From Verrucomicrobiota bacterium (GTDB lineage: Bacteria > Verrucomicrobiota > Verrucomicrobiia > Limisphaerales > UBA11358), in NCBI GenBank assembly GCA_050015635.1, contig JBEKBA010000003.1, positions 73 to 64,072 on the forward strand: 64,000 nucleotides of DNA, given 5' to 3'. Below, in pieces: positions 7,063-48,747 of this stretch (position 1 is the stretch's first letter; each line of letters opens with the position of its first letter). Both the position numbers and the translations under genes were made by a program. The notes below the pieces were generated by a model. It was not told where the DNA came from and searched no databases. It saw nothing but the letters and a program-made list of their open reading frames with translations.

Positions 7063-9960
7063 TTACTGCGTAACCGCAACATTGTCGAACAGCACCGAAT
7101 TCAAAGCGGAATTATTGTGCGCGGTTACCGCGAGGCCCACGTAAATGGTTTTGCCCATGGGAACCGCGATGCTGTCCACGTGTTTCCAGTCTTTTCCATC
7201 CGCTGAAATTTCACCGGTGAATGTGTCGCCGGTGCGGGTCAGTCGCACCCAGTAAGGAATGCTGGGGGACGAGCCATCGGTGTTGCGGCTCGGGCTGTTC
7301 GCCTTCGGACGCCATTGAAAAGCCCAGCCGCCGCCGGCGGTGACAATCATGAGCGCGTGTTTCGAGCCGGGCGCGAGTGATTCACGGAACATGACGCCCG
7401 CCTTCGCCCACGGGTCGGTGAATTGCATGGAGATGATGTGCGCAACGATTTGGCCGTCCCCCGTCATCGGCGTGTACGCGTATTGAAACCCGTCAACGTT
7501 TTCCCAGATGTCAACGCCGGAGGCGATGAGGTTGAAACGTCCGTTCAAATAACTTGCATCACCTGGAAAACCGACGTTGCCGATGTCCGTGTGCGACCAG
7601 TTTGGCGGAAGCAAAGACGCGGCATGTGGCAGCGAACTGATCCACGCGGAGATGGCGGTGACGGCGTTGTGGTCGGTCAGATTGCGCGCGAGCGGCGGCA
7701 TTTGCAAATTGCCGGTGATGCTGATGCGGTGGAGCAAAACGGATTTGGAAATGTCGCCGGGCACGATGATTTTTGCGCCGGGAATGCCGATCGGATTTTC
7801 GACCGGGCCATTGATCAAATCCTGCTTGGCGGGCGGCGTGTCAAATCGCGCGTCGAAAAACGACTCGACTCCGCCGGGGCGATGGCATTGCGCGCAGTTC
7901 GCGTCGAGATAAGAGCGGACGCGCAGTTCCAGCGGCGCGCTCGTGTTGGTGACGGCAACGAGCCGGGCGAATTGCGCAATTTCTGTTTCGTCTAATTTTG
8001 AGTCGAAAAGTCCAATGTGATTCCACGCGCGAATTTGGTTGTCCACGACCCCGGAGGGATATTTGAAATCGCCGTTGAGTTGGCGCGTCTTGACGCCGAG
8101 CACGCCGCCGGATGCGGTGGTGTGGCAGGTCAGACAATCCTGGCGTCCGGGATAAAACCATTTTTGCACCCGCGTGCCGGTGGCGGTTTTAATCGCTATG
8201 TCCTCGGTCAATCCCGCCGTCACCAAATCCGCATCGTGGTTGTCCGCGCGCCATTTATAGCTCGCGCCATAGACGGTGCCGTTTGTGTCGCGCACGAGCA
8301 GGCGCGTTTCGAGCCGCCGCAGGATCTTCGGATTCGTATCGTCCACCGGCAATTCAAAGTTTTTCACGAAAACCGTTCCGGCGGGAAAGGCCCATTCGCC
8401 GTTGGCAAAAAAATTGATTTTTGAGTTTTCCGGCAGCGCCAGCCAGCGCATTTTCACCGCGCCGTCCGACCACAGCGGCGAATTGACGGTGTAGGGAATC
8501 AAAAAATTTGCCGGCTTTAATTTATCAGGATCGGCAAACGCGCCGGTTTGCGAAAGTAATTTTGGCATCGGATGCGTCGGGGGTGGTGGCCCGCCGCGCG
8601 CGAGTTTGTAAATGCGCCCGCCGATGCTGCTCATCTGGCAAAAATAAATTTCACCTTCCGCGTCCACGCCGAATGACGACAGCCCGGTGTAATCGGAGCC
8701 GGAGTTCGGCCCATTACCCTTGGGCATCACGCATAGCAGATTTTTTTGAATGGGCGTGGTCGTTTCATCCATCGCCCAGATCGTCCGATAGACATTGTCG
8801 CCGAAAATGTATTTGCCGCCCAGGTCGCGCGCGAATTCCCTGCCGCGATAAACGTAGCCGCCAATCACCGCGCGGCCGTCGCTGTGCGGGTAATCCAGAA
8901 CCGGTCCGCGGCTGATGCCGATGTAGGGCGATTTCATAACGCCCAGCGTGCCTTCGCAGTAGGGCCACTGAAAATTCAACCCGGATTCGCCCGGTTCGAT
9001 GATATCCACTTCTTCACGCGCGCTTTCCCCAACATCGCCGATATAAATCCTTCCCGTCGGTGGATCGTAAGTCATGCGATGCGGGCTGCGCAGGCCGAGA
9101 CAGAAAAATTCCTCCAGCACGTTTGGCTGGCCGACGAACGGGTTGTCGTTCGGGATGAAATAATGCGCCGTGACGCCGTTGACCGGCTGGCGCGGAATCG
9201 GATGGCTGATGTTTCCGCCGCGACAATCCACATCAATTCGGAAAACACCGGAATACAGACTTTTGTTGATGATCTGGTCGTTGTCACCGACGGAATTATC
9301 GCCGTCCGTCCAATAAAGAAAGCCGTTGATCGGATGAAAAAACATTCCGCCGCCGTGGTGCCAGATCGTTTGGTCGGTCAAATCCACAAACACAACTTCC
9401 GAACCGGGAATCGCCACGCCATTCGCATCAAGCGTGAATCGCGAGAGCCGGTCGTGATAATTGCCTATCGGCGGCGGGCGGGTTGTCGGGCTGCCGGCGA
9501 CGGTGCCCGGCTTGCACCAGGTGTAATAAACGAATACAAAATGGTTCGTCGCGAAGCCCGGATGAAATGCCACGCCGAGCAGCCCTGAATCATCCCAGCC
9601 CTGACATTGATTGCTGACATCAATCACGAGCTTTTTTTGCGTCGCGCCCGGTGAATTTTCAAACGTCCACACCCGGCCTTCGCGTTCCCACACGCAAAGT
9701 AGATTGGAATCAGGAACGTGAGTGAGTCCGACGGAGTTGGTGAACGCCAGATTCGTGAACGCGACCACCGCCGACCAATTGCCCGAAATGCCCGGCGCGG
9801 TTTCCGGCATCGCGCCGTTCAAAAACGCGCCGACATCCGGGCGTGTGGTGAGACCGTAAGGATTTGCATCGGCGGAGAAAATGAAGCTGCCCAGCAACGC
9901 GGGCATTAGCAGCCATTGGTGGTTTTTGAAAAACGTCTTGTTCACAACCGGGACGCGCAT
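7063..9960 (-). CDS. Secreted multidomain protein: PQQ-dependent sugar dehydrogenase-like beta-propeller + dihaem cytochrome c-like region + concanavalin/DUF1349-like C-terminal domain
   Basis: 965 aa with a signal peptide. The N-terminal part is glucose/sorbosone-dehydrogenase-like. Two CxxCH motifs (CLTCH, CAQCH). The C-terminal ~190 aa are LamG/DUF1349-like. Confidence 0.7.
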
Positions 9961-41742: not shown

Positions 41743-42006
41743 ATGACCAGAACACAAAGAACACTCCTTGTCAGCGCGGCTATCACCGGCTTGCTGACGG
41801 GCGTCTGTGCGAAAACTTACGCGCAGAGCACCAACGCGCCGGGCACCAACGCGCCGAGCGGCGACACGGGCAAACACGACTGCCAGGGCAAAAACACCTG
41901 CAAAGGCCTGGGCGGTTGCAAGGGCAGCGACAATGGCTGCACAGGCAAGAACAGTTGCAGCGGCAAGGGCGGCTGCAATACCAAGGGCAGTTGCAAATCC
42001 GTGTAA
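41743..42006 (+). CDS. Cys-rich, Sec-signal-bearing RiPP precursor (bufferin BufA2-like)
   Basis: 87 aa. Signal peptide is MTRTQRTLLVSAAITGLLTGVCAKTYA. The core has 7 Cys in about 44 aa, with two C-x-G-K-N-x-C-x-G-x-G-G-C units. Sits immediately upstream of a DUF692 gene. Confidence 0.7.
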   Translation: MTRTQRTLLVSAAITGLLTGVCAKTYAQSTNAPGTNAPSGDTGKHDCQGKNTCKGLGGCKGSDNGCTGKNSCSGKGGCNTKGSCKSV

Positions 42007-42072
42007 TGTCCGGTTTCATTTTGGAGAGCGAAGTTGTGGAAATTTCGCTCTCCAATTTTTATTTGGAGAGCC

Positions 42073-42927
42073 ATGCCCGCCAATCCATTCAATAACTTTA
42101 CCGATTACGGCATCGGCATCGGCCTGCGCGTGCCGCATTACGATCATATTCTTTCCCGGAAGCCGGCCGTGGGATGGTTTGAGATTATCTCGGAAAATTT
42201 CATGTGCGATGGCGGGCGACCCCTGAAGGTGCTTGATCAAATCCTTGAACAATATCGCGTGGTGCAGCACGGCGTCTCAATGTATTTCGGTTCGTCGGAA
42301 AAATTGAATCGCGAGCATCTGAAAAAAATCAAGCGGCTCGTCAAACGTACGAACACGCCGTGGCTGTCCGACCATCTTTGCTGGGGCAGCGTGGACGGAC
42401 GCTACACGCACGATCTGCTGCCGATGCCCTACACCTTCGCCGCCGCGCGCGTCACCGCGCAACGCATCCGCGAGGCGCGCGATTTTCTCGAAGTTCCCAT
42501 CGCCGTCGAAAACGTAAGCAGCTACGCGGAATTCCACGTTTCGGAAATGACCGAATGGGAATTTCTCAACGAAGTGGTCGAGCGCGCCGACTGCGGAATT
42601 TTGCTGGACGTGAACAACATTTACGTCTCCTCGCGCAACCACGGTTTCAACCCGTTCGATTACGTGAACGGCATTCCGGCGCATCGCGTCGCGCAGATTC
42701 ACATCGCCGGCCACAGCAAATTCCAGAAATATATTCTGGACACGCACGACCATCCGGTCATTGACCCGGTCTGGAAACTTTACGAACGGGCGATCCAACG
42801 CACCGGCAAAACCGCGACGCTTTTGGAATGGGACGACCGTATTCCCTCGTTCGACGAAGTCCACGATGAAGCGTTAAAAGCCGGAAAATTCCTGAAACGT
42901 CTTGAAAACGAACTTGTCAGCGCGTAA
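42073..42927 (+). CDS. DUF692 / MbnB-like multinuclear non-haem iron oxidative (MNIO) enzyme
   Basis: 284 aa from MPANPFNN. DUF692 pattern runs throughout (GIGLR..H...I......WFE.ISEN; HGVS; LSDHLCW; LLP.P; ENVS.Y; LLDVNN.YVS..N; IHIAGH; DTHD; LLEWD..IP). Confidence 0.85.
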   Translation: MPANPFNNFTDYGIGIGLRVPHYDHILSRKPAVGWFEIISENFMCDGGRPLKVLDQILEQYRVVQHGVSMYFGSSEKLNREHLKKIKRLVKRTNTPWLSDHLCWGSVDGRYTHDLLPMPYTFAAARVTAQRIREARDFLEVPIAVENVSSYAEFHVSEMTEWEFLNEVVERADCGILLDVNNIYVSSRNHGFNPFDYVNGIPAHRVAQIHIAGHSKFQKYILDTHDHPVIDPVWKLYERAIQRTGKTATLLEWDDRIPSFDEVHDEALKAGKFLKRLENELVSA

Positions 42928-43840
42928 CCCGCAAACCCAGCGCGAATTTCACGAGTTGCAACGGCTCATGGCCCGCGCGGTCATGCGCCCGCTCGGTCGC
43001 GGCGACGCGATGCAACGCAAATGGATTGACGGTCGTCCGACAAAAAAAATCGCGGAAAGTTTCATCAAACCAAACGATCGGTTGAATTCCTTCGAGCGGC
43101 TCGAGATTTACAATCGTCAATACTGGTTTCGTATCCGCGATTGTTTTTACGACGATTATCCCGGCCTGCGCGCCATTCTCGGCGACAAAAAATTCGAGCG
43201 GCTCGCCGACAAATATCTCACGCATTGCCCGTCGCAATCCTTCACGCTGCGGAATCTGGGGTCGCGACTGGTGAAATTTTTGGAGGCTGAACCAAAGCTG
43301 GCTGCGCCACATCAGGAACTCGCGCTCGACCTGGCGCGGCTTGAATGGGCGCACACCGAAGCCTTCGACAACGAAGCTAAACCCCCGTTGCAAGCCAACG
43401 ATTTGTTGGACGCCGACCCGGCCAAAATTCGTTTGCAATTGCAGCCGCACTTGACGTTGTTGACACTCGAAAATGAAGTGGATGATTTTCTAATTGAGTT
43501 GAAAAAAAAATCAGGTTTGCGCAGCGAAGCAAGCAACGCGATGGAACAAAATCATCGCCACAAAAAAACGAAAATCGCGCGGGGACTGAAACGCGGGAAA
43601 AATTTTCTCGTGGTTCACCGTTATAATGACGGTGTTTATTACAAGCGGCTTGAACCGGGTCAATTTCTGGTTTTATCCGCGCTGCAACGCGGCGCGACGC
43701 TGGAAAAAGGCTGCGCGACCCTGATTCAATTAAAATCCTTCAAGGGCGATTTGAGCGAAAAGATCACAAAATGGTTTTCAAGCTGGGCCGCACTCGGCTG
43801 GTTTTGCGGTCTGGAAAATCCGGCGAAAGGAAAATCATGA
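42902..43840 (+). CDS. DUF2063-family partner protein (BufC/HvfC-like)
   Basis: 312 aa. Overlaps the DUF692 gene by 26 nt. N-terminal LQRLMARAVM...Y.RQYWFR pattern. Conserved position in DUF692 operons. Confidence 0.7.
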   Translation: MKTNLSARNPQTQREFHELQRLMARAVMRPLGRGDAMQRKWIDGRPTKKIAESFIKPNDRLNSFERLEIYNRQYWFRIRDCFYDDYPGLRAILGDKKFERLADKYLTHCPSQSFTLRNLGSRLVKFLEAEPKLAAPHQELALDLARLEWAHTEAFDNEAKPPLQANDLLDADPAKIRLQLQPHLTLLTLENEVDDFLIELKKKSGLRSEASNAMEQNHRHKKTKIARGLKRGKNFLVVHRYNDGVYYKRLEPGQFLVLSALQRGATLEKGCATLIQLKSFKGDLSEKITKWFSSWAALGWFCGLENPAKGKS

Positions 43841-44310
43841 AAAGATTGGGAAAAGGTCATCATTTTTTTGTTAAGGCGGCGAATTTTCTGCAGTCGCCAT
43901 TCCTGCTGGCCATCCGGCTTTACTGGGGCTGGCAATTTTTTGAAACGGGAAAAGGCAAGCTGGAAAATATACAAAACGTCGTCCAATTTTTTCAGACGCT
44001 TAACATTCCCATGCCCGAAGTGAACGCGTGGATCGTCGCCATCATGGAATGCTTCGGCGGACTGCTGCTGATGGCCGGACTCGGCTCGCGGCTGGTCGCG
44101 TTTGCGCTCGCGTTCGACATGGTCATCGCCTACATCACCGCCGATTCGGAGGCGTTGAAGTCCATCTTCACCGATTCGGACAAATTTGTGCAGGCCGCCC
44201 CGTTTCCGTTTCTACTGATGACGTTGACGGTTTTGGTTTTTGGGGCCGGCGTCTTCTCGCTCGACTGGCTGATGGGAAGAATATTTTTCCGCAAAACCGG
44301 AAATGCCTGA
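43837..44310 (+). CDS. DoxX-family membrane protein
   Basis: 157 aa from MKRLGKGHHF. LAIRLYWGWQF..TG..K and four hydrophobic helices. ATGA overlap with the upstream gene. Confidence 0.8.
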   Translation: MKRLGKGHHFFVKAANFLQSPFLLAIRLYWGWQFFETGKGKLENIQNVVQFFQTLNIPMPEVNAWIVAIMECFGGLLLMAGLGSRLVAFALAFDMVIAYITADSEALKSIFTDSDKFVQAAPFPFLLMTLTVLVFGAGVFSLDWLMGRIFFRKTGNA

Positions 44311-44365: not shown

Positions 44366-44422
44366 ATGCGCCTGACGGCGCGGGGATGTGGGATAGGATC
44401 CAGGAAATCGGGAACAAAAAAG
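44366..44422 (-). repeat. REP-like interspersed element, copy interrupted at its end by the IS
   Basis: ATGCGCCTGACGGCGCGGGGATGTGGGATAGGATCCAGGAAATCGGGAACAAAAAAG is the reverse-complement paralogue of 11061-11116. Confidence 0.75.
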
Positions 44423-44451
44423 GGTAACAATATACCTGTCACAACATAGCC
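44423..44451 (+). repeat. Left terminal inverted repeat of the IS1595-family element
   Basis: GGTAACAATATACCTGTCACAACATAGCC. Confidence 0.85.
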
Positions 44452-44485
44452 ATTGGAGGTCGTTTGCCAGTATGTGACCTGATTT

Positions 44486-44659
44486 TCAACGGTGCTTTTT
44501 GGCTTCCCGTTTTTTTAAGTTGCTGGCCTGAAACGCAGCCAACTGTCTGTCTGATTCCGATTTGCTGACTGACAGCACTTTCTTGATGACTCTTTTGAAG
44601 CCGCCAAGCGAAATCAGCGGAACATCGTCGGCTGATTGATGTTTTGTTTTATTGTTCAC
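44486..44659 (-). CDS. Possible fourth passenger ORF, small basic protein (not in ORF track)
   Basis: 57 codons from a GTG that overlaps the upstream stop as GTGA. Reads VNNKTKHQSADDVPLISLGGFKRVIKKVLSVSKSESDRQLAAFQASNLKKREAKKHR. No in-frame ATG. Confidence 0.3.
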   Translation of the reverse strand: MNNKTKHQSADDVPLISLGGFKRVIKKVLSVSKSESDRQLAAFQASNLKKREAKKHR

Positions 44660-45189
44660 TTACTAAATATCTTAAACAGGCGTTTGAAAAATCCAATTCT
44701 ATCTCTTTGTAAGATTTTAACTGGTTCTCCGTAGGCTGGAAAGTTTCCATTAAGACACTCAATCGTATAATGTTCGATGACTTGATACGGGCCAAGTTTG
44801 CTTCTCCAATTTCCATTTACCATTTGTCTAGCGGCGTGCGTTGGCATATCGGGAGTCGTGGCCGGAAAAGCTCCAACGGGATCATAATAAATAACTACCT
44901 TTTCAAGATTTGGTTCGGAGGTAGAAAACTTGTTTTTTTGCTCGGTATATCTGAATAATCCAAACGCCTGAACAAACCCATCTACTGTTTCTTCTCGTTT
45001 TTGTAGTGGCCAATAATACTGTCCGTAAGGGTCTGGCCACCACCATCTAGTTTTATCGCCAGCGGCGTAAGCGATACAATTATATCTTTTAGTTGGCCAG
45101 ATAGTGACAGCGTGATATAAATCTCTTGTCAAAGATGGAAAACAGCCTTCAAGGTCGCGGGCTAGATACCATTTAATTCGGATAGCCAT
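44656..45189 (-). CDS. Passenger protein C: hypothetical, Trp-rich, with Cys...His pattern suggestive of a papain-like fold
   Basis: 177 aa. Motifs YNCIAYAAGD...WWWPDPYGQYYWP and, later, PTHAARQMVNGNWRSKLG. Overlaps protein B by 17 nt. Confidence 0.6.
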   Translation of the reverse strand: MAIRIKWYLARDLEGCFPSLTRDLYHAVTIWPTKRYNCIAYAAGDKTRWWWPDPYGQYYWPLQKREETVDGFVQAFGLFRYTEQKNKFSTSEPNLEKVVIYYDPVGAFPATTPDMPTHAARQMVNGNWRSKLGPYQVIEHYTIECLNGNFPAYGEPVKILQRDRIGFFKRLFKIFSK

Positions 45190-45832
45190 TCTCTTTTCCC
45201 CATTTCAACCAAGCTTCCCTCATCTTTTTTAGATTTCCAGCGTCCTCTGGCTTAATTGGAGAAATTTTTGCGATTGCTCTTAAGGCGGTGAACCAGTGGT
45301 TTGTTTCTTTTTTCAAATCACGATGAATAAATTTAATTGCCGGTCGCCCCATTCCAATAATATCCAAATAGGCAGGGTGCATTACAATTGCAGAGATTGA
45401 AGATTGAAATTGAGTTTCTTTTTTCCATCTTTTTGACAATAGATCAAATTCTGATTCTAATTGCGAAACGTCAACGGAAACAGTTGGGGCAACTATGTCG
45501 GTCGGAGAAATTACACTCGTCAGAGGGAAACTTCCATAATCGAACGTAATAGCATATCCATTTGTTTTCAATTCACATAAATCCCACTTTTTTTGCAATT
45601 CCTGCCAGAGAGATGTTAAATCACAAACACTCTGCTCTGACTTGCGGAAAAGAACATTATTTGGATTCATATCCAAGTGCAGCACGTCAACTTTTGGCGC
45701 TGGCACTTGTTTTTTAGCCGAAAACTGTGGATGATTAAACCAATTCAAAACGGCGCGACGTGGCTTCAGGGCAGGCGTATCATCATACTCCATCCATGAT
45801 TCTCTTTCAGATTTAGCTGCTAGTGTCTGCAT
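45173..45832 (-). CDS. Passenger protein B: hypothetical
   Basis: 219 aa with a helical C-terminal region (NHWFTALRAIAKISPIKPEDAGNLKKMREAWLKWGKENGY). Starts 10 nt after the protein A stop. Confidence 0.6.
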   Translation of the reverse strand: MQTLAAKSERESWMEYDDTPALKPRRAVLNWFNHPQFSAKKQVPAPKVDVLHLDMNPNNVLFRKSEQSVCDLTSLWQELQKKWDLCELKTNGYAITFDYGSFPLTSVISPTDIVAPTVSVDVSQLESEFDLLSKRWKKETQFQSSISAIVMHPAYLDIIGMGRPAIKFIHRDLKKETNHWFTALRAIAKISPIKPEDAGNLKKMREAWLKWGKENGYPN

Positions 45833-45842
45833 GAAAATTTAT

Positions 45843-46520
45843 TTATACTTCGAGATATGGAACGCTTGAGCTTTTTAGTATTGATTCAAGTGCTTTCGTC
45901 TTTTTCTCTGCACGAGCAATCACTTCTTTCAGAGACTTAATATCATCTGTGTCTAAAGCAACGTAAAATTCCTTGTGTTTGCCTGTTCCGCCATCATGGA
46001 ATCCAATTTGTAAATTGTGAATTATCATAGCACCTGACGCCGAATCAGCCGTGCTTGTGAACACTGGCCGTATGTCGGAGAGAACTCTTGCGCGGCAAAA
46101 AGTGTGCTTATGTTCGGTCATCACATCAAATGCTTTCGATGTAACCGCCATTGTTTTTTCAAAGCCGAGCAGCTTTTGGAGGCGGCTGATTAAAATCTCC
46201 TTTTTTCCTGTTGAAAATTCAAAGTCCTTTGATACGGATTCTAAAATTGATTCACCAACGTCGTTTGCTAAATCTTTAGCAGACAATTCCGCCCTCTCTT
46301 TCATCGCATACAAAATGAAAATAACCCTGCAAATCTCTGACAATTCATCAGTCTCAATTGTTTTAACTTTTTCTTTAACATTGCCGATGAATTGCCTGCG
46401 CCTCAAAGTGGGATTCGTCTCGCCAAATGCAGAAATCAAGGAATTGAATTGAGGATCGTCAAGTTCTGAAATCGCTTTTAGAACCGGCAAATCTTCGTCT
46501 GGAATGGTTAATGAAGCCAT
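45843..46520 (-). CDS. Passenger protein A: hypothetical
   Basis: 225 aa. Helical N-terminal half and a beta-rich C-terminal half (GAMIIHNLQIGFHDGGTGKHKEFYVALD). No recognised family. Confidence 0.6.
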   Translation of the reverse strand: MASLTIPDEDLPVLKAISELDDPQFNSLISAFGETNPTLRRRQFIGNVKEKVKTIETDELSEICRVIFILYAMKERAELSAKDLANDVGESILESVSKDFEFSTGKKEILISRLQKLLGFEKTMAVTSKAFDVMTEHKHTFCRARVLSDIRPVFTSTADSASGAMIIHNLQIGFHDGGTGKHKEFYVALDTDDIKSLKEVIARAEKKTKALESILKSSSVPYLEV

Positions 46521-46636
46521 ATAATTCCTATAAAAGACGCTCGTTTTGTTTCATTTCCATATAAATATAGCCGCAAAAATCAGCCGTCAAACGATTATTT
46601 TTTCTGTTGGCCGCGACGCTGACGGCTATTTGCCAT

Positions 46637-47584
46637 TCAATTTCCATCGGCGTTACCGCCGATTAACTGCTGATATGTCAATCTTCGTCCCGAAATTCCG
46701 CCCAACGCTTTCTGAAATCGTTCGCCGTCATTGTTCTCACGATTGTTGAATCGAAACGCCTGCTCATCAAGATAACGAAACAGGTGAAACGGCTCAACGC
46801 TGACGTATGTTCCCTTAAAGCAACGCTTCAGCAAGCACCAAAAATTCTCCAATCCGTTCGTGTGGACGTTGCCGCGCACATATTCCTTTGCGTGGTCAAT
46901 CGCTTCGTGAACGTAATCCTTGCTCAATCCGTAATATGACGGCAACGCATCGGTGAACACCTGCGAACCGGCGGCGACGTGCTGGCGAATTTCACCTTGA
47001 ACCGTGCTGCGTCTGGCGTTCGGAACGTGCTTCAATTTAATTTTGCCCTTGCGTTCCAAAAGTCCCATGACAATCGCTTTGCCGACGCCACCAGTGCCAC
47101 GACCGCGTTTTCGTTTTTTGTCGGTGTGCATATTGCGAACTTTTCCGCCGATATAAGTTTCATCCGCTTCAATTTCGCCGGACAATTTTTCAATCGTGCC
47201 GGACTGCAAAGCCAAACGGATTCTTTGTTCTAAAAACCACGCGCTCTTTTGCGTGATGCCCAATGCGCGGTGCAATTCGTGAGAACTGATTCCGTTTTTT
47301 GCGCTGGCGACAAGCCACATTCCAAGCAGCCACTTGTCCAAACCGATAGGGCTATCTTCCATGACAGTTCCGACCTTGAACGAAAACTGGCGACGGTTCG
47401 GGCAATCTTCGCACGTCCAAACTCTGCGCTTGGCGGTGAATGACACATGGACAGAACCGCAGCGCGGACATTTCACGCCGTCCGGCCAGCGCATTGCAAC
47501 GGCAAATTTCAGGGCGGTGTCGGCATCGGCAAAATGCGCCGTGGCTTCTTTCAGCGTCTTTGGGAACTCGGTTTTATCTTTCAT
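46637..47584 (-). CDS. IS1595-family (ISXO2-like) transposase
   Basis: 315 aa. N-terminal zinc ribbon (CPRCGS...CEDC), an HTH, and a DDE region with EADETYIGGK. Confidence 0.9.
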   Translation of the reverse strand: MKDKTEFPKTLKEATAHFADADTALKFAVAMRWPDGVKCPRCGSVHVSFTAKRRVWTCEDCPNRRQFSFKVGTVMEDSPIGLDKWLLGMWLVASAKNGISSHELHRALGITQKSAWFLEQRIRLALQSGTIEKLSGEIEADETYIGGKVRNMHTDKKRKRGRGTGGVGKAIVMGLLERKGKIKLKHVPNARRSTVQGEIRQHVAAGSQVFTDALPSYYGLSKDYVHEAIDHAKEYVRGNVHTNGLENFWCLLKRCFKGTYVSVEPFHLFRYLDEQAFRFNNRENNDGERFQKALGGISGRRLTYQQLIGGNADGN

Positions 47585-47603
47585 GCGCTCAATATCGCAG
47601 AAA

Positions 47604-47632
47604 GTCTATGTTGTGTCAAGTATATTATTACC
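47604..47632 (-). repeat. Right terminal inverted repeat of the IS1595-family element
   Basis: The reverse complement reads GGTAATAATATACTTGACACAACATAGAC. Confidence 0.85.
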
Positions 47633-47665
47633 CAAAAAAGAGTGGGAGCGCAAGCGGTCCTTGTG

Positions 47666-47695: not shown

Positions 47696-47994
47696 GGACG
47701 CCGCAGTCGCCGTCGCGCGTTCCGCTATGGCGGCCGGGGCGCGGCGTCCCTACCGTCCAAATTGGCCAATTTCAGCTTGTTGTTTTTGCGGCTTAGTTGA
47801 GTCATTTGTGACTATCGCGTGATGCCCTGCAAGTCGTTTTTTTTGGTTGATTTTGTTGGTGTTTTTCGTTGTTAATAAGTCGTTGGGAATTATTGTTGCG
47901 TCGCATGAACGGATATATTATTAACCATTCAACTGCTGGAATGGCAGGCTTGAATAAATTTTAAAAAGCGAATCGAACAAACCAAAGAGACAAA

Positions 47995-48747
47995 ATGAAA
48001 CTGAAAAACAAAATCATCACTGTAGGCGCCGCGCTGGCATTTTTAACTTTTGCGACTTGCGGGCTGCAGGCGCAAATAACAAACCTGGTTACAATCACCG
48101 CGACAGCCTGGGAGCAAGGCACCAACTACAACATCACCAATATCGTTATCAAGCTTGGTACCACTAATGTCACTGTTTACACCAAGTATGTGAAACCACC
48201 CCAAGAATCTCTTGACACGAAAGATATACTCAAAGAGCTGGCTAAGGATGAAGACGCGGCGGGACTTTGGACCTCCAACAACTTTCCCTCCGGCGCGCAA
48301 CTGGCGGTTATAGACGGTGGTGATATTACCAACAAATTTGTGGTGTTGGGCAAGACGAACAACCTTCTCGTTGTTGTTACCAATATTGTAAGTCTCGCAA
48401 AAGGAACCAACGACATTGACGTTGTCAGCGGCGAAGAGAATGACACGACCGGTCTTTACTCCCCTTCCAAGACCGACATGCACCTTTTGGATTTCATTTT
48501 TGACGATACCGCAATCACCAACGCTGGAAGCGGCGACATTAAGTTCGATCTGCTCGGTTTGGATACGCAAAAGGTAACCGACACCAAACCCGTGGCGTCG
48601 GGAGCACATGAGGGAGACTATACGGAGACCGTTTCAACCTCGGTGCCTTCAGCCGTTGGCGAAGGGACTGATAATGGCATCGATGTTGTCCTGACCGGCA
48701 GCATTACCGGAACGGGATCAGTAAAGCTTGTATACGTTGCTCCGTAG
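47995..48747 (+). CDS. Secreted hypothetical protein
   Basis: 250 aa with a signal peptide (ITVGAALAFLTFATCGLQA). Thr/Asn/Val-rich and beta-rich. AT-richer than the backbone. Confidence 0.6.
   Translation: MKLKNKIITVGAALAFLTFATCGLQAQITNLVTITATAWEQGTNYNITNIVIKLGTTNVTVYTKYVKPPQESLDTKDILKELAKDEDAAGLWTSNNFPSGAQLAVIDGGDITNKFVVLGKTNNLLVVVTNIVSLAKGTNDIDVVSGEENDTTGLYSPSKTDMHLLDFIFDDTAITNAGSGDIKFDLLGLDTQKVTDTKPVASGAHEGDYTETVSTSVPSAVGEGTDNGIDVVLTGSITGTGSVKLVYVAP

Follow-up and report, generated by a model that had tools for sequence, protein, structure and literature searches.

The DNA analysed here is a 64,000-nucleotide stretch of contig JBEKBA010000003.1 from a Verrucomicrobiota bacterium (assembly GCA_050015635.1), hereafter the window, and our subject is a block of four AT-rich genes, A to D, at positions 44486–46520. 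A first-pass annotation made from the sequence had described this block as a serially coupled passenger operon mobilised by an insertion sequence (IS), and as a candidate toxin-immunity or defence-type module. All four open reading frames (ORFs) lie on the minus strand where that annotation had placed them, and the block rides as cargo on a transposon of the IS1595 family, 3,210 bp long, which spans positions 44423–47632 and is present as a single copy within the window. From left to right, the features of the element and its boundaries are as follows.

44415–44422: left target-site duplication, CAAAAAAG, a perfect 8-bp direct repeat directly outside the inverted repeat
44422–44454: cargo-distal terminal inverted repeat, GGTAACAATATACCTGTCACAACATAGCCA..., a 33-nt arm, 85% complementary to 47601–47633
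44659..44486, minus strand: gene D, small basic protein, 57 aa, GTG start
45189..44656, minus strand: gene C, DUF7689, predicted hydrolase, 177 aa
45832..45173, minus strand: gene B, candidate antitoxin-like or adaptor partner, 219 aa
46520..45843, minus strand: gene A, COMMD-like protein, 225 aa
47584..46637, minus strand: IS1595-family DDE transposase, 315 aa, with an N-terminal zinc ribbon (Pfam, NCBIfam)
47591–47619, minus strand: candidate sigma-70-like promoter, TTGACA-17-GATATT with TG, inside the transposase-proximal inverted repeat
47601–47633: transposase-proximal terminal inverted repeat, GGTAATAATATACTTGACACAACATAG, a 33-nt arm
47633–47640: right target-site duplication, CAAAAAAG, an 8-mer identical to the left copy

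The transposase ORF, the inverted repeats (IRs) and the flanking 8-bp repeat together delimit the element and make genes A to D its cargo. The transposase matches the Pfam families DDE_Tnp_IS1595 (E=2.6e-43) and Zn_ribbon_IS1595 (5.4e-12) and the NCBIfam family transpos_IS1595 (5.7e-52), and a target-site duplication (TSD) of 8 bp is usual for IS1595 elements. Carriage on an IS, as first proposed, thus holds, and the ends of the element are now exact. The same is true of the composition, with a G+C content of 0.407 in the gene block against 0.512 in the transposase gene and 0.535 in the window, and of the junctions: a gap of 10 nt separates A from B, B and C overlap by 17 nt, and C and D overlap by 4 nt (GTGA). 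The motifs that had drawn attention in C (YNCIAYAAGD, PTHAARQ and the segment RWWWPDPYGQYYWP) and in B (HWFTALRAI...AWLKWGKENGY) are all present. Promoter-like sites in the region are not more frequent than expected by chance (6 found, 5.4 expected), and the search of the region for such sites yielded nothing above chance between the transposase gene and A that could serve as a separate cargo promoter. As no better site lies there, co-transcription of the cargo from the IR would be compatible with the sequence.

Cargo-carrying IS1595 elements with A-B-C-D are a genuine family. The order transposase-A-B-C-D is found also on unrelated metagenome contigs (L001, L002/L003; loci are denoted by such numbers throughout), and inverted copies of a 24-nt probe taken from the IR of the window bound the whole unit in L001, L093, L098, L119, L137 and L047, in the last of which the transposase gene is inverted and located at the far end of the IR-bounded unit. 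The transposase-proximal repeat is matched with 0–5 mismatches in L109, L093, L119, L001, L137, L098 and L047, and with 6–7 mismatches in L157/L161. Five of the six related IR-bounded copies are flanked by their own, differing 8-bp duplications. Equal gene order with the same IR in independent loci, most of them with TSDs of their own, puts the repeats and the duplication of the window beyond chance, and separate insertions in different genomes, whose TSDs differ, suggest indirectly that the element transposes. The G+C content of the cargo is 4–8 points under that of the transposase gene in all six related copies, which suggests that the cargo originated separately from the transposase.

The first-pass annotation had found no nameable family in the cargo; two of its proteins can now be assigned, A as a bacterial COMMD-like protein and C as a member of DUF7689. 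Protein A consists of a helical HN domain followed by a COMM domain at the C-terminus. A profile of its 80 homologues, compared with the PDB by hmmsearch, matched the COMMD-like protein MBK5214510 (9q6a) at E=1.1e-33 over residues 3–214, and this is the sole solved protein matched by the profile over its full length. The AlphaFold model of A (pLDDT 89.9) comprises seven helices (residues 8–135), three long strands (139–153, 163–176 and 182–189) and a long helix (191–217). In a Foldseek search with this model, 9q6a and 9q6c ranked first (E=2e-12, TM 0.75–0.79), followed by subunits of the human COMMD ring (E from 4e-6 to 1e-3).

Prokaryotic COMMD-like structures are homo-octameric or homo-decameric rings, as shown experimentally for MBK5214510 and others (PDB 9q6a, 9q6c and 9q6d; Liu et al., Nat Commun 2026, PMC13392464), and by analogy one would expect A to assemble into a ring of eight or ten subunits. 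A bacterial origin has been argued for the eukaryotic COMMD family, with the prokaryotic proteins regarded as ancestral to the ring of ten COMMD proteins in Commander, a eukaryotic trafficking complex, and their function in prokaryotes has been called unknown (PMC13392464; bioRxiv 10.64898/2026.02.02.703414). The gene-context analysis in Liu et al. covered Myxococcota, Chlamydia and Haloarcula only; the Myxococcota genes have neighbours resembling those of type VI secretion systems (T6SS), namely VgrG, PAAR and DUF2169 genes (PMC13392464). In the text of that paper the words operon, transposase, cysteine, peptidase, toxin, mobile and defence/defense are all absent (PMC13392464), and we found nothing in the searchable literature that links COMMD proteins or the COMM domain to toxin-antitoxin (TA) or anti-phage systems.

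The metagenome scan seeded with the alignment of A gave 80 loci, to which L086–L088 were added in the count of downstream genes. The pair B-C directly follows A in 48 of the 59 A-seeded loci with at least 900 nt downstream, and an IS1595 transposase lies directly upstream of A, on the same strand, in 14 of the 36 with more than 1.1 kb upstream. The transposase adjoins 6 of the 13 A-B-C trios having both flanks visible, about half of the trios being without one nearby, and its orientation relative to the cargo varies (L004, L047, L086). Among 85 genome loci seeded with C, A was present in 9 and a transposase in 10; of the genome loci lacking A, about 93% have no transposase near the B-C pair. 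The small share of C-seeded loci with A, together with the frequent presence of IS1595 upstream of A, indicates that A is an optional first gene strongly tied to IS carriage. An A-B-C trio without a transposase is found in the cultured bacterium Methylovulum miyakonense HT12 (L016, 5766–7438, NZ_KB913025.1).

Protein C matches Pfam DUF7689 (PF24738) at E=9.3e-29, with 101 bits against a cut-off of 22.6, residues 32–160 aligning with profile positions 6–117 of 118. Its homologues form 443 clusters in a large protein collection and are unnamed, stand-alone proteins of 145–190 aa in all 120 listed. DUF7689 is distributed sporadically in at least 583 species-level genomes from many phyla, including Verrucomicrobiota, Planctomycetota, Nitrospirota, Acidobacteriota, Chloroflexota, Cyanobacteriota and Pseudomonadota. 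Three residues stand out among 234 distinct homologues: C38 is conserved in 234, H118 in 232 and H140 in 231, and Y36, N37, W50, P52, W60, P61, W128, S130, K131 and G133 are also near-invariant. In the AlphaFold model of C (pLDDT 90.9), C38 begins the helix 38–42, H118 lies in the strand 115–122 and H140 at the end of the next strand (137–140), which is a papain-like topology. The papain-like order of Cys and His that had been noticed in the sequence is therefore supported by an invariant triad in a confident model, with a spacing from C38 to H118 of 80 residues in place of the roughly 90 first given.

For membership of a papain or NlpC/P60 family, in contrast, no significant match was found. 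The PDB profile search returned nothing relevant for C. The best fold match in the PDB is PaJOS (9g7g; E=0.12, TM 0.24), with the NlpC/P60 protein 3npf at E=0.64; the best match in BFVD is an unnamed 179-aa viral protein (E=1.6e-3, TM 0.47), and named NlpC/P60 or CHAP proteins follow there at E from 0.05 to 0.9. The weak matches recur on papain-fold hydrolases, that is, the bacterial Josephin clippases 9g7g and 9fpa, 3npf, and phage NlpC/P60 and CHAP proteins. Given that these matches recur but none is significant in sequence or structure, we did not assign C to NlpC/P60, CHAP or Josephin and file it as a predicted papain-fold Cys-His-His hydrolase or transferase outside any named peptidase family.

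The constant partner of C is B. An analysis of the neighbourhoods of C homologues, which the first-pass annotation had proposed, was made with hidden Markov models from the homologues against naive ORF sets of the 85 loci: a gene with the B domain is located directly upstream of, or overlaps, the DUF7689 gene in 82, and the remaining three are truncated by the end of the contig, so that the association holds in 82 of 82 informative loci. As B adjoins C across loci and A is optional, the conserved unit is B-C rather than A-B-C-D. The coupling of the operon thus stands as first described, and its uniformity does not: a two-gene core is preceded by an exchangeable first gene. The two core genes are small, co-oriented, overlapping or abutting, and strictly co-occurring, as is characteristic of TA pairs.

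Comparison of the homologues showed that B is conserved only in its last ~90 residues, which are helical (MHPAYQxIIGMGxxAxPLILxEL...HWFWALxAI...AWLxWGxExGY), and that the N-terminal part varies in length and sequence. An exhaustive profile search put the family of this domain at 9,409 representatives at 50% identity, 7,720 of them at E<=1e-10, mostly proteins of 110–240 aa with the domain at the C-terminus. We found no relative of B in Pfam, NCBIfam or, by profile search, the PDB, and the Pfam scan gave no DNA-binding domain match for B of the window. The region before the core is longer where a COMMD-like gene lies upstream, with a median of 84 against 55 aa (Mann-Whitney p=2e-11). A single N-terminal 'COMMD-binding' domain shared by A-linked second genes was considered and rejected, the iterative profile of the N-terminus of window B having reached only 8 close relatives. 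Some proteins of the family (P0217, P0218, P0221, P0222 and P0230) contain two B-domain stretches, and P0218 (449 aa) also has an N-terminal match to DUF7387 (3e-07).

Both the first gene and the pair that follows it are exchanged among loci. In 31 of the 69 genome loci without A, a gene of the TIGR04255 family, encoding ~250 aa on the same strand, abuts B (E down to 6e-43) and is translationally coupled upstream of the B-DUF7689 pair. TIGR04255 is an NCBIfam family labelled 'sporadically distributed', without relatives in Pfam or, by profile search, the PDB. The possibility that it is a divergent COMMD-like protein was rejected (hhalign probability 0.5%), and literature searches on DUF7689 and TIGR04255 returned nothing relevant.

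In the 11 A-seeded loci that lack B-C, A is followed by other coupled pairs. In L139 and L154 (375–2119 and 5001–7003), the third gene behind the COMMD-like gene encodes a toxin with a RES domain (Pfam 3.6e-9, which exceeds the gathering score), a call that relies on Pfam, as a single-sequence search of the PDB with the L139 protein gave no match. The second gene ends in WLDTPNERIGG..PR.FLDTEKEWVIVDLI.NIEQG; this C-terminus weakly matches the Xre/MbcA/ParS toxin-binding domain of Pfam (0.0045) and aligns, again weakly, with the same C-terminal region of the Pseudomonas putida Xre antitoxin in the PDB (6gw6_B), and no helix-turn-helix (HTH) domain is detectable in it. That an MbcA-like protein and a RES toxin stand in the positions of B and C, and that the MbcA-like one has a layout like that of B, argues more strongly than anything else for B as a neutraliser and C as an effector. 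The L139/L154 cassette resembles a tripartite variant of the RES-Xre TA family. Further cassettes headed by a COMMD-like gene (L142/L145, L148, L160, L106, L125/L144, L133 and L163) carry second and third genes without a Pfam match; examples are a ~130-aa protein that contains '...G.S.DW.KY' and second genes that contain 'SR.IL.LE..WD..G', and the second gene of L133 has the motif 'WFNHPQ' in common with the N-terminus of window B. In the three-gene cassettes headed by this COMMD-like clade, the second and third genes appear to behave like exchangeable antitoxin/toxin pairs.

The genomic surroundings of the pair point in a similar direction. Among nearest neighbours in the genome loci, Methylase_S is the commonest (9 of 144), followed by N6_Mtase (3) and the IS1595 transposase (3); second neighbours are most often HsdR components (HSDR_N, ResIII and SWI2_SNF2, 6 each; EcoEI_R_C, 2), with two STAND NTPases besides. 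In L011 (5656–7435) and L048 (5770–7438), hsdR, TIGR04255, B and C are followed by hsdM/S or hsdS, all on one strand. In L087/L088, A-B-C-D lies in a TA island, among two MNT/HepT pairs, a PemK toxin gene and an HTH_3 gene. An IS1595 element in a Sphingomonadales metagenome-assembled genome (L044, 2944–7474) carries a 966-aa ORF with HsdR_N, an HsdM-like N6-adenine methylase and a C-terminal B domain, followed by DUF7689; the methylase-B ORF may be a fusion, or an assembly or frameshift artefact. Sporadic distribution and association with mobile and defence loci (IS1595, type I restriction-modification (RM) operons, the L087 island), which are further marks of TA systems, are therefore found for B-C. 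The remaining neighbours are unrelated housekeeping genes, as expected of a sporadically inserted module.

Taken together, these observations lead us to favour, with moderate confidence, the view that the cargo is a mobile tripartite cassette of TA type or defence type, in which B would be the neutraliser, C the effector and A a scaffold or regulator. Under this model, C would be a cytoplasmic papain-fold hydrolase or transferase with the catalytic residues Cys38, His118 and His140, acting as an effector or toxin on some cellular substrate, and B would neutralise or control it through the conserved ~90-residue C-terminal helical domain. A, presumably as a COMMD-like ring, would be a third component, optional and located upstream, that serves as scaffold, chaperone or regulator and possibly engages the longer N-terminus of B, and TIGR04255 would be its positional equivalent in other loci. 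D could be a conserved small basic accessory protein. The benefit conferred by the cassette between the IRs might be stabilisation of the transposon or host locus (addiction), abortive-infection-type defence, or both. The toxin/immunity or defence interpretation offered in the first-pass annotation thus remains the best fit to the synteny of B and C, the exchange with an MbcA-like/RES pair, and the RM and TA locations, although no known TA or defence model was matched.

Several results weigh against this view. The toxicity of C and its binding to B are what we infer by positional analogy with the RES/MbcA-like pair, for the Pfam, NCBIfam and PADLOC searches placed neither B nor C in any toxin or antitoxin family described so far. 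More broadly, the TA and defence models of PADLOC, Pfam and NCBIfam gave no match to any of the four cargo proteins; a defence-system search had been proposed at the outset, and the PADLOC-DB v2 families gave no hit at E<=1 for any of these proteins or the transposase, nor did a PHROGs scan of A–D give a meaningful match. Foldseek found no match to the C model at E<=0.001 in the PDB or BFVD, and without a significant neighbour the fold assignment is one of topology and motif only. Most B proteins, unlike classical type II antitoxins, have no detectable DNA-binding domain: among 66 orthologues, only two gave weak N-terminal matches (FitA-like ribbon-helix-helix, 5.6e-5; PhdYeFM, 1.5e-4). Because the N-terminal extension of B is not one conserved domain, contact between A and B is speculative, and AlphaFold predicted no partners among nearby genes for the COMMD-like clades of Myxococcota, Chlamydia and Haloarcula (PMC13392464). 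By tblastn, no homologues of A or C were found on PLSDB plasmids, or of C in INPHARED phages. Finally, the locus samples are the best 80 matches per scan and not random ones, many metagenome contigs are short, and genes were called by a naive ORF finder, so that starts may be over-extended.

A more far-reaching form of the favoured reading, which we put forward tentatively and hold to be rather doubtful, is that COMMD-like rings are the hub of mobile tripartite TA or defence cassettes. Here the ring would bind the variable N-terminus of the second-gene product (B or the MbcA-like protein), much as the eukaryotic COMMD decamer holds the N-terminal regions of CCDC22 and CCDC93, and would thereby control the release of exchangeable effectors (DUF7689, RES NADases and others); bacterial COMMD-like proteins would gain a first function. 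If this were true, the core of Commander would trace back to a conflict system that moved horizontally and was spread by IS1595 transposons.

B and C might instead be a non-toxic enzyme with its regulatory or specificity subunit, C being for instance a deacylase, amidase or peptidase engaged in stress response, protein repair or the removal of modifications, with A and TIGR04255 as alternative scaffolds, and the presence in IS and RM loci would then come from the usual mobility of accessory genes and not from conflict biology. The conjectural toxicity of C, the scarcity of antitoxin-type DNA-binding domains in B, the very large size of the B-domain family, the many housekeeping singletons among the flanking genes and the lack of a PADLOC match all agree with such a pair. 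Its sporadic occurrence across phyla, embedding in type I RM operons and TA islands, repeated carriage inside IS1595 elements and the replacement by a RES toxin and an MbcA-like partner in equivalent positions behind the same COMMD-like gene do not, and we consider this alternative unlikely.

Still less probable, in our estimation, is a secreted or contact-dependent toxin-immunity pair, in which C would act as an amidase effector of NlpC/P60 type and B would confer immunity to it, possibly with a link to type VI-like machinery as proposed for the Myxococcota COMMD-like genes. The weak likeness of the C fold to NlpC/P60 and CHAP cell-wall hydrolases and the location of Myxococcota COMMD-like genes near VgrG, PAAR and DUF2169 genes (PMC13392464) are in accord with it. 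Inspection of the translations, however, revealed no signal peptide or trafficking domain in B or C, C is stand-alone in all the listed homologues, the gene that would confer immunity overlaps C from upstream, which is the TA arrangement, and no T6SS families are among the 25 most frequent flanking families listed. A role of the cargo as accessory transposition factors of the IS1595 lineage (regulation, target choice or manipulation of host factors) would explain why the transposase and A-B-C-D stay together between the IRs in several genomes, often with the transposase directly upstream of A and no convincing separate cargo promoter, but it is highly improbable and we reject it as the main explanation, since most B-C pairs and about half of the A-B-C trios have no transposase nearby, and also in view of the varying transposase orientation, the lower G+C content of the cargo in every copy and the fact that the transposase alone suffices for transposition in typical IS1595 elements.

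The mobile tripartite cassette that we favour can be compared with several known systems. It resembles RES-Xre pairs (MbcT-MbcA, ParT-ParS) in gene logic: an upstream partner, whose N-terminus varies and whose conserved C-terminal domain binds the toxin (putatively so in B), overlaps an enzyme effector downstream. However, C is not a RES protein and B has no similarity to Xre or MbcA, and, whereas the classical systems are bipartite with an HTH antitoxin, the present cassette has a third gene upstream, and most B proteins show no recognisable DNA-binding domain. TAC is a toxin-antitoxin-chaperone system in which a SecB-like chaperone acts together with a chaperone-addiction extension on the antitoxin. 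The likeness is that a third gene, presumably co-transcribed, is present in only a subset of an otherwise bipartite family, and that the antitoxin-like partner is extended there, as seen in the longer N-terminus of B with A. The third component here differs in being COMMD-like or TIGR04255 and upstream, whereas the SecB-like one of TAC is downstream, and the contact between A and B would still be putative.

Protein C is similar to NlpC/P60, CHAP and Josephin enzymes in the order of a Cys at a helix N-terminus, a His in a strand and a polar His in the next strand; it differs in its invariant Trp-rich loop (W50, P52, W60, P61), in the S130-K131-x-G133 motif and in having no secretion signal or cell-wall-binding domain. 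The cargo-carrying IS1595-family variants of the ISPna2 and ISNwi1 groups are the 'transporter IS' of ISfinder. Like these, our element combines a zinc-ribbon IS1595 transposase with IRs, a TSD of 8 bp and passengers between the transposase and one IR; the differences are that a cargo of COMMD-like protein, B, DUF7689 and D is undescribed in the searchable literature and that the same cargo is found in both orientations relative to the transposase. The anticodon nuclease PrrC sits within the EcoprrI hsd locus (abortive infection), and TIGR04255-B-C between hsdR and hsdS/hsdM on the same strand is reminiscent of such RM-embedded genes, HsdS and HsdR being the commonest neighbours. This likeness holds for relatives of B-C and not for the IS-borne copy of the window, and there is no homology to PrrC or RloC. 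Finally, A agrees with prokaryotic COMMD-like proteins (PMC13392464) in its HN and COMM architecture and is structural kin of human COMMD1-10, but its clade differs in heading three-gene cassettes with B/DUF7689 or MbcA-like/RES, often inside IS1595 elements.

Precedents thus exist for the separate parts: IS1595 cargo elements, the Pfam entry for DUF7689, the COMMD-like structural family and the logic of tripartite TA systems. What appears to be undescribed in the literature searched is a COMMD-like gene heading transposon-spread cassettes with exchangeable antitoxin-like/effector pairs, and the obligate pairing of DUF7689 with an unmodelled domain of ~9,400 representatives. The locus and its relatives give one COMMD-like clade a concrete, testable context as the first gene of compact three-gene cassettes, and they allow a likely role to be assigned to DUF7689, to the B partner domain and to TIGR04255 as a widespread alternative first gene. 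Should the toxin or defence reading be true, C would represent a new class of papain-fold effectors and A a new kind of third component in TA or defence biology, and the cassette would be a tractable system in which to study the function of COMMD rings in bacteria. The interest of the locus is high for the reason that the role of prokaryotic COMMD rings becomes directly testable.

The small fourth gene, first noted as a possible 57-codon ORF at the stop of C, proves to be conserved. Homologues of D were found in 12 distinct loci; they are basic proteins of 52–67 aa with the motif PLxP..F+.AxKKxLS.SK.ESD+QLA.FQASN..KREAKK and a median pN/pS of 0.46, with synonymous differences near saturation. 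Conservation in 12 loci and this ratio indicate that D is a real gene. It occurs in 7 of the 36 A-seeded loci with room downstream, and has no match in Pfam, NCBIfam, PADLOC or PHROGs.

The element inserted ~105 nt past the stop codon of a DoxX gene (43771–44310, 5.9e-20), the last gene of a candidate cluster for a ribosomally synthesized and post-translationally modified peptide that occupies 41743–44310 on the plus strand. The cluster begins with an 87-aa Cys-rich secreted precursor (41743–42006, no Pfam match), followed by an MbnB/TglH/ChrH (DUF692) enzyme (42034–42927, 4.7e-107) and a DUF2063 protein (42902–43840, 4.8e-15), and we take it to be of bufferin type, a label borrowed from DUF692/DUF2063/DoxX operons. 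Just to the right of the element, a 250-aa ORF on the plus strand (47995–48747) starts like a signal peptide or lipoprotein (MKLKNKIITVGAALAFLTFATCG...) and is without a Pfam match; it lies within a second locally AT-rich stretch (47750–48250) with a G+C content of ~0.42.

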